In this document: in pieces, positions 2,017 through 4,261 of the stretch | Layout of the letters: each line of letters starts with the position of its first letter | Numbering within the stretch: the first letter of the stretch is position 1 | From: Heptranchias perlo | Taxonomy: Eukaryota | DNA length: 64,000 nucleotides | Reading direction: 5' to 3' | Assembly: GCF_035084215.1 (NCBI RefSeq) | Contig: NC_090364.1 | Location: 4,650,001-4,714,000, forward strand | Made by a program: the position numbers and the translations under genes | Notes under the pieces: model-generated | Told to the model about the DNA's origin: nothing | Databases searched by the model: none | The model's input: the letters and a program-made list of their open reading frames with translations, nothing else

Positions 2017-4261
2017 TTAATCACTCGCCCCCAGGGTGAGCTTGTCAAACAGGTACACTCCCATGCCATTCTCAGGGGCTCCCAATCTCTTCAGGTTGGT
2101 GATGTGATCGCCAAGCTTCTTGATCATCTTCACTTGTTCATCCAAGTAGTCAGTCTCCAGGAAGTCACACAACTGGAAGAGAATAGTTATGTCCAGCAGC
2201 AGATATCAAGGAACTTCCCCTAGAGTTTGGATTTTAATCCTCTTGGACTGGAGGATAGTCAAGTGGTACACTTCAGATTGATGGAATTACTGCATTATTA
2301 GAGTAAACTTACTGTACAACAGGTGCATAGATCCTCATGACACTTACTTCTCAATGTCCACAGTAGGTAAACCTCCCTGTCTCCACTCAAAATCCCAAGA
2401 TAGACAACCCTACACAAAGCTATTGGCTCAAGAACTGTAACATTCCACCTCCAACTTATCCAAAAGCCCACATTAGAACTTACATGAGGGTCTGTCCTCT
2501 CAGTGGAGAGTTTGTGCAGATCCAGCAGACTCTGGTTCACATTCTTCTCCATCTGCAGAGCTCTCTGCATCACCTCCAGACCATTGCTCCACTCATCCTG
2601 CTCTGGCTTCTGAAAATTCAGAACATTTAAAAATTCCATGAACATCTGATGCTCTCATGGCTAACTTCATGCAAGAATTGGAGTCATGGAGATACAGTTT
2701 GTGCCCCAGATAACTGAACAATGCTAGGTGAGAAATCACCAAAACAGGTTAATACTACAAGAAATCACACCAAGATTTACAGCACTAGACAGGCCATTCA
2801 GCCCATCATGTGTTCTAGATTTGGCACACAGAGGACTCCAAATTAATTCCACTGCCCTGCCTACAAGCATAGACATGCAAGCATTATTGGTACCTGTACC
2901 TTATACAGCATGTGAGGAGTTATGTTTTATTCTCATTGACTTGAGAATGTATCAGACATTTCAGTGTTTCCCTACTGCTCCAACTGAAGGTAAAGATGTT
3001 TGACAATGTTATATTAATACCCCCACATAAGGACAATATCCTCTATAAACCCAATATTGCCACTTACTCTACTGCATGTTCATCTACTCTACCCCTTGAG
3101 GAATGGTCTTTGGTCCAACTAGTCCTTCATCACAATCTTCTTGGCTTTTGTACTGCTTATCCAGATTGGTTTTAGCAAATTGCACTCAAGGAATTATATT
3201 TCCACCCTGGTCTGTTTCTCCAACATTTTGCCATATCCAGTTTTCAACTGTGGTCCAGTCACTAATATTTCTCCACAGCTAACCTTGATGTCCTCCAGGA
3301 CAATACAGCCACCACGTCGATTCTGGAATTTCATCAGTTTCTCAGCATCCTCCCATTTCTCATGCGACTGCTCCGTGAAAAACTTGGTAAAGTGACGCAG
3401 GGCAACATCATCCCGGTCAAAGTAATAGGACTGAGGAGAGAATATTGAAAACAGAATTATGTCAGACCTAGATCTCACCTACATACAGTTAGTGCTCAAA
3501 GTTTCTTCAGAAATCAGATACCATTTGTTTACTAGTAAAATTCAATTTACTTCACAAGATGTTCAATAGCTTCCCCCCTCCCCAATAGGATAATAAGTGG
3601 ATCAGAGAAAAGTAGCAATTAAGGTCATGGAATTACATTTCATATCAACTCAATCTACTTTTAAGTAAGTTGTACCTCCTTTTACTCCATTCTAGTCTAA
3701 AATTAGTAGGGGAACAAGAGACAATTCTCTCATTCCAGTAAATTTACACTCTACAATCATTTAGTGTAATAGAGATCTAGGAACAGTAAAGAAAGCTTCA
3801 GCACTAGGAGTCACAACAAGAAAACTCATGAGGACCTGTCAACATTTCACTGGCTACAGTCACCCCATTGAAACTGAAAGTTGTCAAATGCTGACAAGCA
3901 CTTGACCAGGTTTCTGCTCTTCTCTTACAAACTCAGGCAGCAGCTGAGCAAGGTTCATATTAAACCCCTCAATAGAGTGCAGGTGCTGTGAAGAGCAGTC
4001 CATTAACTCTACAAGATCACCCCATATTACTCACTGGCCAAAGATTTTTCTTCCCAGGGAGGTGGAAAGAAATCAAGAGAAATATACTTTAAAACCAGTT
4101 TATTGAACCAGAGAAATCCCAACTACTTAAAATGCAGTGACAATTAATCAAAAACTCACCATGGAGAGGTAAACATAGGAGGAATAGAGCTCCATATTGA
4201 TCTGCTTGTTGACACCATCCTCACACTCCTTGTGGTAATTCTGACACACTTGGGAAGCCAT
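2017..4261 (-). CDS. Ferritin H/M-type subunit, copy 1 (176 aa); ferroxidase ligands altered (E62K, H65D)
   Basis: Exons 4160-4261, 3284-3430, 2484-2609, 2017-2172; GT-AG, phase 0. [34 protein letters not shown] / [49 protein letters not shown] / [42 protein letters not shown] / [51 protein letters not shown]. Confidence 0.95.

Follow-up and report, generated by a model that had tools for sequence, protein, structure and literature searches.

In ferritin H chains, E62 bridges the two irons of the ferroxidase site (human H numbering, transferred by PDB alignment, is used throughout), and in L chains E60 is part of the cavity glutamate cluster responsible for nucleation. How much of this equipment can a subunit lose and still be kept? 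According to the available parts of two papers, E27, E62 and H65 form the ferroxidase site and the combination E62K + H65G inactivates the H chain (PMC6929972, PMC4029007). FTHL17, a germ-cell ferritin that is multi-copy in mouse, offers a natural example: the accessible text states that E62K alone suffices to abolish its activity, and reports low stability and a nuclear location (PMC7760355). Atypical ferritins lacking ligands, E62K included, are widespread in invertebrates and mostly have no iron-responsive element (IRE), as excerpts of PMC8395497 have it, and teleost M is reported, again in excerpt, as the orthologue of tetrapod L (PMC4117605). For sharks, the accessible text of one study describes an ancient ferritin expansion ('FTL/FTH1') that is ovary-specific in the Greenland shark (10.1101/2024.09.09.611499), and that of another 59 'FTH1b' copies in two clusters, together with an FTL-like gene near FTH1 in other sharks (PMC13214024). 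In the searched main text and supplements of the latter, 'ferroxidase' occurs 0 times and no E62-less branch is described; more broadly, the literature searches brought up no account of a shark array with copies lacking E62. Such arrays have been taken to supply additional active enzyme and have been connected with ferroptosis and longevity. But is every copy in such an array an active enzyme?

The window analysed here, a 64-kb stretch of the Heptranchias perlo genome (C43:4,650,001-4,714,000), contains 12 four-exon ferritin genes, all on the minus strand. Translation of the splice-joined exons gives open frames of 173-176 aa in all 12, with GT-AG splice sites. The original prediction singled out copies 1, 6 and 10 as a ferroxidase-dead, L-chain-like lineage. 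The three belong to one K/N62 branch, and we think it on balance probable, judging from sequence, that they make ferroxidase-impaired subunits, predicted to co-assemble, as tolerated filler, with the active E62 subunits. The features concerned are the following (window coordinates).

1913..2026, minus strand: stretch of the copy 1 3' UTR, matched by a copy-specific contig with 0 mismatches at depth 850
2017..2172, minus strand: copy 1 exon 4 to the stop, with H136D at 2149-2151; E140 and Q141 retained
2484..2609, minus strand: copy 1 exon 3, E107 retained
3284..3430, minus strand: copy 1 exon 2, with T52, K53, K62, W63, D65, M70 and R75
4160..4261, minus strand: copy 1 exon 1, ATG at 4261; E27 and Y34 retained
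4262..4511, minus strand: copy 1 promoter and short 5' UTR, with ATTGG (CCAAT) boxes and a TATA box at 4341-4347; no IRE
26539..28862, minus strand: copy 6, intact, 176 aa; exon 2 (27877-28023) with N62, W63 and H65
39381..39527, minus strand: exon 2 of copy 8 (E62), whose intron family is common with the K/N62 branch
48522..50831, minus strand: copy 10, intact, 175 aa; exon 2 (49843-49989) with N62, W63 and H65; F132I
55017..55163, minus strand: exon 2 of copy 11, with W63 but E62 retained; outside the lineage
60519..60665, minus strand: exon 2 of copy 12 (E62), intron family likewise common with the K/N62 branch

The residues are as predicted. Copy 1 reads HEKWED (K62 at 3356-3358, D65 at 3347-3349), copies 6 and 10 read HENWEH (N62 at 27949-27951 and 49915-49917), and nine window copies retain E61-E62-x-E64-H65. 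Copies 6 and 10 keep every other ferroxidase ligand, H65 included; both carry F132I, and copy 6 also D45V and R49C. Database protein P0006 has the same sequence as the copy 10 product. As had been claimed, none of the three genes is broken, and they have CCAAT-type boxes, TATA box and poly(A) signal common to them and the E62 copies. W63, in contrast, had been taken as the mark of the lineage and fails as such: copy 11 combines it with E62, beyond the window four intact members of the lineage carry R63, and position 63, a CGG codon, holds a residue other than R in 39 of the 130 array-type proteins from other sharks. The markers are T52/K53 plus K or N62. Rfam matches no IRE anywhere in the window; it does match one at FTH1 on C12 and one at the lone conventional gene on the left edge of the array. 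In copy 9 (44995-45510) exon 1 has lost 9 nt, intron 1 measures 143 nt and the promoter is of another type, resembling that of the KHED copies found elsewhere in the array.

Where did the branch come from? In a tree built from intron flanks only (73 rows), nine K/N62 copies of the T52/K53 type form a clade (92/82, bootstrap/SH-aLRT), with a 10th beside it at no resolved position, which confirms that copies 1, 6 and 10 are one lineage. The clade is nested in an intron family with eight E62 copies, window copies 8 and 12 among them; intron divergence is 9-12% between branch members and 14-16% between them and the E62 sisters. Across the intron tree K/N62 needs at least three changes and appears on at least three intron backgrounds; short conversion tracts may have carried one mutation between copies. 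The tree also derives N62 from K62. At the protein level the three copies are 91-94% identical to the E62 window copies, against 50-51% for human L (first 126 residues) and 58-59% for the gecko L-oocyte chain, and in quick trees they sit in the species' own array, with the L clade (98) and an older K62 clade (100) standing apart. AU tests on proteins rejected neither a forced grouping with L (p=0.18) nor one with the older K62 clade (p=0.14), so it is the DNA that carries the ancestry point. The intron likeness to E62 sisters, together with the protein trees, places the origin within the array rather than in tetrapod L, which supports that part of the original prediction. Among array-type proteins of 14 other shark species (a sample of cluster representatives and members rather than whole genomes), E62 is present in 126 of 130 and HFTKFF, the motif shared by copies 1, 6 and 10, in none. 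Sporadic loss of E27, H65, Q141 or E62 is also seen in the arrays of other sharks. More generally, none of the 189 chondrichthyan proteins compared from species other than Heptranchias contains HFTKFF.

The label 'L-chain-like' stands only in part. K62 takes the place of the bridging glutamate in copy 1, and N62 does so in copies 6 and 10. H65 is absent only from copy 1, E27 is present in all three, and no nucleation glutamate has been gained: position 60 is H in all window copies and E in human L and gecko L-oocyte, and cavity E53 has become K in the branch. Orthology to L chains is rejected because the branch is closer to its E62 neighbours than to L, keeps E27 and lacks E60.

The window is part of a much larger array. 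There are 85 exon-2 matches across 664 kb of C43; once four divergent, older genes and a match to half of a split exon are subtracted, 80 array copies remain, of which 67 are intact (56 E62, 11 K/N62) and 13 broken or incomplete (6 E62, 7 K/N62), a class set by an automatic rule under which one of the seven K/N62 copies may in fact start at an upstream ATG. The intact K/N62 copies comprise four KRE, four NWE, one KWED and two KHED. Breakage thus affects 7/18 K/N62 copies vs 6/62 E62 copies, the former tracing to about 3-4 events. Further copies lie on C38, C725 and C1048. Among the 38 K/N62 pattern matches genome-wide, the copy 1 motif occurs once, and 23 are QEKHED copies on these three (one exon examined). 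Dozens of dispersed, near-identical cassettes with two or three ferritin genes each are seen at C38 9.6-17.7 Mb, C725 and C1048, a very recent segmental spread onto another chromosome; their QEKHED exons resemble broken C43 copies. At the left end of the array (C43:4.209-4.261 Mb; L056-L060, L021-L022) are four older single genes: a conventional M-type gene with an IRE, one with a long N-terminal leader (P0019), which we would guess to be a mitochondrial targeting signal, one with K61/Q65/K140 and a strongly divergent one with T61/A62/T64. The window copies are four-exon tandem genes that group with the array proteins of other sharks, separate from FTH1, which is a single IRE-bearing gene on C12. 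No separate FTL-like gene was found in 160 kb around the C12 FTH1, nor among 150 of 751 and 150 of 369 candidates scored.

A second set of K62 ferritins lies on the same chromosome. Three genes at C43 8.39-8.41 and 8.69-8.71 Mb (L061-L063) combine K62 with R65 or C65 and show no IRE match. Their proteins (P0026, P0147) form a clade of their own (SH-aLRT 100) and are 75-76% identical to the window copies; orthologues in eight other shark species have K62 in 45 of 45 proteins, and those of carpet sharks E141. This family joined tetrapod L at a support of 69 only; as a shark L-type chain it is a stronger candidate than the window genes. Both have K62 on an M/L-type background with no IRE match, but in the old family K62 is fixed, whereas the window branch is younger and so far seen in one species. 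The old-family marks (S52, an MSY/TSF start of exon 2, the separate clade) are missing from the window branch, whose DNA ancestry lies with the E62 array; the two are distinct.

Is the branch expressed? Four sequencing runs were available, none recorded as RNA and none with a tissue given, and depth was not used to rank genes. In runs X1 and X2 depth lies over exons only, with joints at predicted introns. An 87-nt contig of X1 covers 3319-3405 of copy 1 with 0 mismatches across K62-W63-D65 at depth 488, the next nearest copy being five mismatches away, and the intron-2 bin of copy 1 has depth 0; transcription of copy 1 is thereby confirmed. By mismatch count and diagnostic bases, X1 contigs also match a KHED copy (depth 848) and a KREH pair (1029), so three K62 types are transcribed in this run. 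The N62 base has no row in X1 at a 1% threshold, which does not amount to silence as contigs show presence only; for the same reason little weight attaches to the failure to see the branch in X2, a run of a related organism in which the K53 base reaches a depth of 39 out of 162,941. Array exons are very deep in X1 and near-absent in X3 and X4, which share one sample code with X1, and this suggests tissue-restricted expression of the array. On C9 a spliced, truncated retrocopy, 95% identical to branch members, carries T52/K53/K62 and implies past germ-line transcription of the branch. Several processed ferritin retrocopies on other chromosomes (L064:1300-1718, L073-L076) likewise imply germ-line expression of the array.

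What keeps the branch? Exon changes expected from intron divergence served as a yardstick for its nine intact members (parsimony on one tree, which overcounts under recombination). Exon 1 shows 14 synonymous changes vs 10.5 expected and 9 non-synonymous vs 34 (0.26, P=3e-7); exon 2 shows 17 vs 16.8 and 22 vs 48 (0.46, P=2e-5), looser than the 0.20 and 0.16 of two E62 clades. Exons 3-4 are homogenised in all three clades, with synonymous change at 21-43% of the intron expectation. Conversion in the C43 array is limited to exons, while introns diverge by 10-20%. At exon 2 the synonymous distance from the branch to E62 copies is 0.30, vs 0.10 in other exons; judged by this, the homogenisation that affects E62 copies has passed over exon 2 of the branch. 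Pairwise comparison gives a pN/pS of 0.24 for branch members and 0.23 for E62 copies, and rare-variant ratios show no difference between the two classes (p=0.67). Variants private to the branch (20 non-synonymous, 10 synonymous, Y34S, E134D, H136D and D45V among them) give an omega of 0.50 (p=0.06), which weighting for transitions raises to 0.79 (p=0.33); for three E62 clades the corresponding values are 0.30-0.33 and 0.47-0.53; the filter is biased against synonymous sites, which are near-saturated array-wide (85 variants at 104 sites). Since the private variants alone show no significant constraint, conversion from E62 copies may contribute to the constraint signal. Among intact copies, alteration of a second ferroxidase ligand is seen in 4/11 of the K/N62 type vs 2/55 of the E62 type, not counting an E62 copy whose exon 1 is short (p=0.006 per copy; copies are not independent, and by event p=0.13). 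E62 is the ligand most often altered, and E27, E61, E107 and Q141 are unaltered in all 66 intact copies scored, a bias that fits selection for K62 or a single mutation spread by gene conversion. Signs of relaxation are the larger share of broken copies, the additional lost ligands and private variants without a significant mark of purifying selection.

Tolerated filler would account for this record. Dozens of IRE-less copies expressed together would leave catalytic capacity in excess, so loss of E62 would cost little, and a misfolding subunit would poison the assembly of the 24-mer. We propose that, because dead subunits would be cheap and misfolded ones harmful, selection keeps the fold and lets the active site decay, through changes such as K62 to N62, H65D and Y34S; like L chains, such subunits would lower the share of catalytic sites, but they lack the nucleation residue of L. 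Kept fold, decaying site and more gene death are what this model predicts and what is seen, and the best reading is that the branch is kept mainly because its subunits must still fold. All of them should be able to assemble. For K62, loss of activity is predicted with good support from the FTHL17 precedent, and we infer that copy 1 is inactive; the N62 copies are probably impaired. It is quite improbable that copies 6 and 10 are partly active and only copy 1 dead: their other ligands are all in place, and no E62N measurement was found in the literature on single E62 substitutions, but the neutral amide of N62 is unlikely to bridge two irons, and because N62 derives from K62 on the tree the ferroxidase site would already have been lost before it arose. 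We also give little credence to slowly dying duplicates whose frames are kept by conversion from active neighbours and which have no function of their own. The homogenised exons 3-4, the private variants and the 7 broken copies speak for it; against it, exons 1-2 are short of amino-acid changes at a neutral synonymous level, copy 1 is transcribed, a spliced retrocopy exists and the private-variant filter is biased. For these reasons, the possibility that the copies are young pseudogenes, against which the original prediction had to be held, falls away.

Could the branch instead be a positively selected new L-like partner, tuning the ratio of catalytic to non-catalytic subunits and possibly offsetting a small number of old-K62 genes? 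Such selection is conceivable, since E62 is preferentially altered (missing in 11/67 intact C43 copies vs 4/130 array-type proteins sampled in other sharks) and homogenisation is resisted by the exon-2 haplotype; moreover, K62 is the L-chain residue, it is transcribed in three types, and the old family counts three genes found here, whereas its clusters in carpet sharks and Mustelus have 76, 45, 43 and 19 members. We nevertheless hold it to be unlikely. K62 has drifted to N in eight copies, the branch has more broken copies, E27 is kept without E60 while E53 has become K, and HFTKFF is private to this species among the proteins compared. Compensation is weakened by Pristiophorus, which has a large array with few K/N62 proteins and no old-K62 match. 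Equally tentative is the thought that an L-type subunit has re-evolved in an egg-type array, its K62 exon-2 haplotype shielded by selection from conversion; if true, a second, recent non-catalytic ferritin would stand beside the ancient K62 family, a snapshot of the origin of L chains. About a sixth of intact main-array copies have no bridging iron ligand and some of these are transcribed; a count of copies therefore gives too high an estimate of catalytic capacity. Subunits of active and inactive type, nearly identical and encoded at one locus, provide a natural series for the effects of E62K, E62N and H65D, and whether a dead subunit is useful or merely tolerated bears on the first step in the origin of an L chain.

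How, then, does the locus compare with known systems? Like tetrapod FTL and the 'light chain, oocyte isoform', copy 1 has K62, has lost H65 and has E57/E61/E64, but the branch has E27 and H60, and copies 6 and 10 N62, where tetrapod L has Y or L at 27 and E60. As on the human FTL chromosome, glycogen synthase (4 Mb off) and UBE2M (an exon adjoining the array) are found on the array chromosome; both lie with FTL on human chromosome 19. Atypical invertebrate ferritins, in the excerpts available, have also lost ferroxidase ligands independently, E62K included, and mostly have no IRE; they differ in being highly diverged single genes and not a branch of a homogenising array. With the published shark clusters, as far as the accessible texts describe them, this array has in common that its four-exon copies number in the dozens and are divided between one large cluster and one small one on a single chromosome (PMC13214024; 10.1101/2024.09.09.611499). 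The resemblance to mammalian FTHL17 extends to an H-like chain with E62K and most ligands kept (copy 1, KREH members) and to germ-line expression, implied here by the C9 retrocopy and, for the Greenland shark cluster, by the ovary-specificity given in the accessible text (10.1101/2024.09.09.611499). The origin is separate, however: FTHL17 is a mammalian X-linked FTH1-like gene, identity to marsupial FTHL17-named proteins is 62-63% on distant tree branches, and the shark branch is interspersed among near-identical active-type copies. The array itself has already been published; modestly new is the young, FTHL17-like, E62-less branch inside it.
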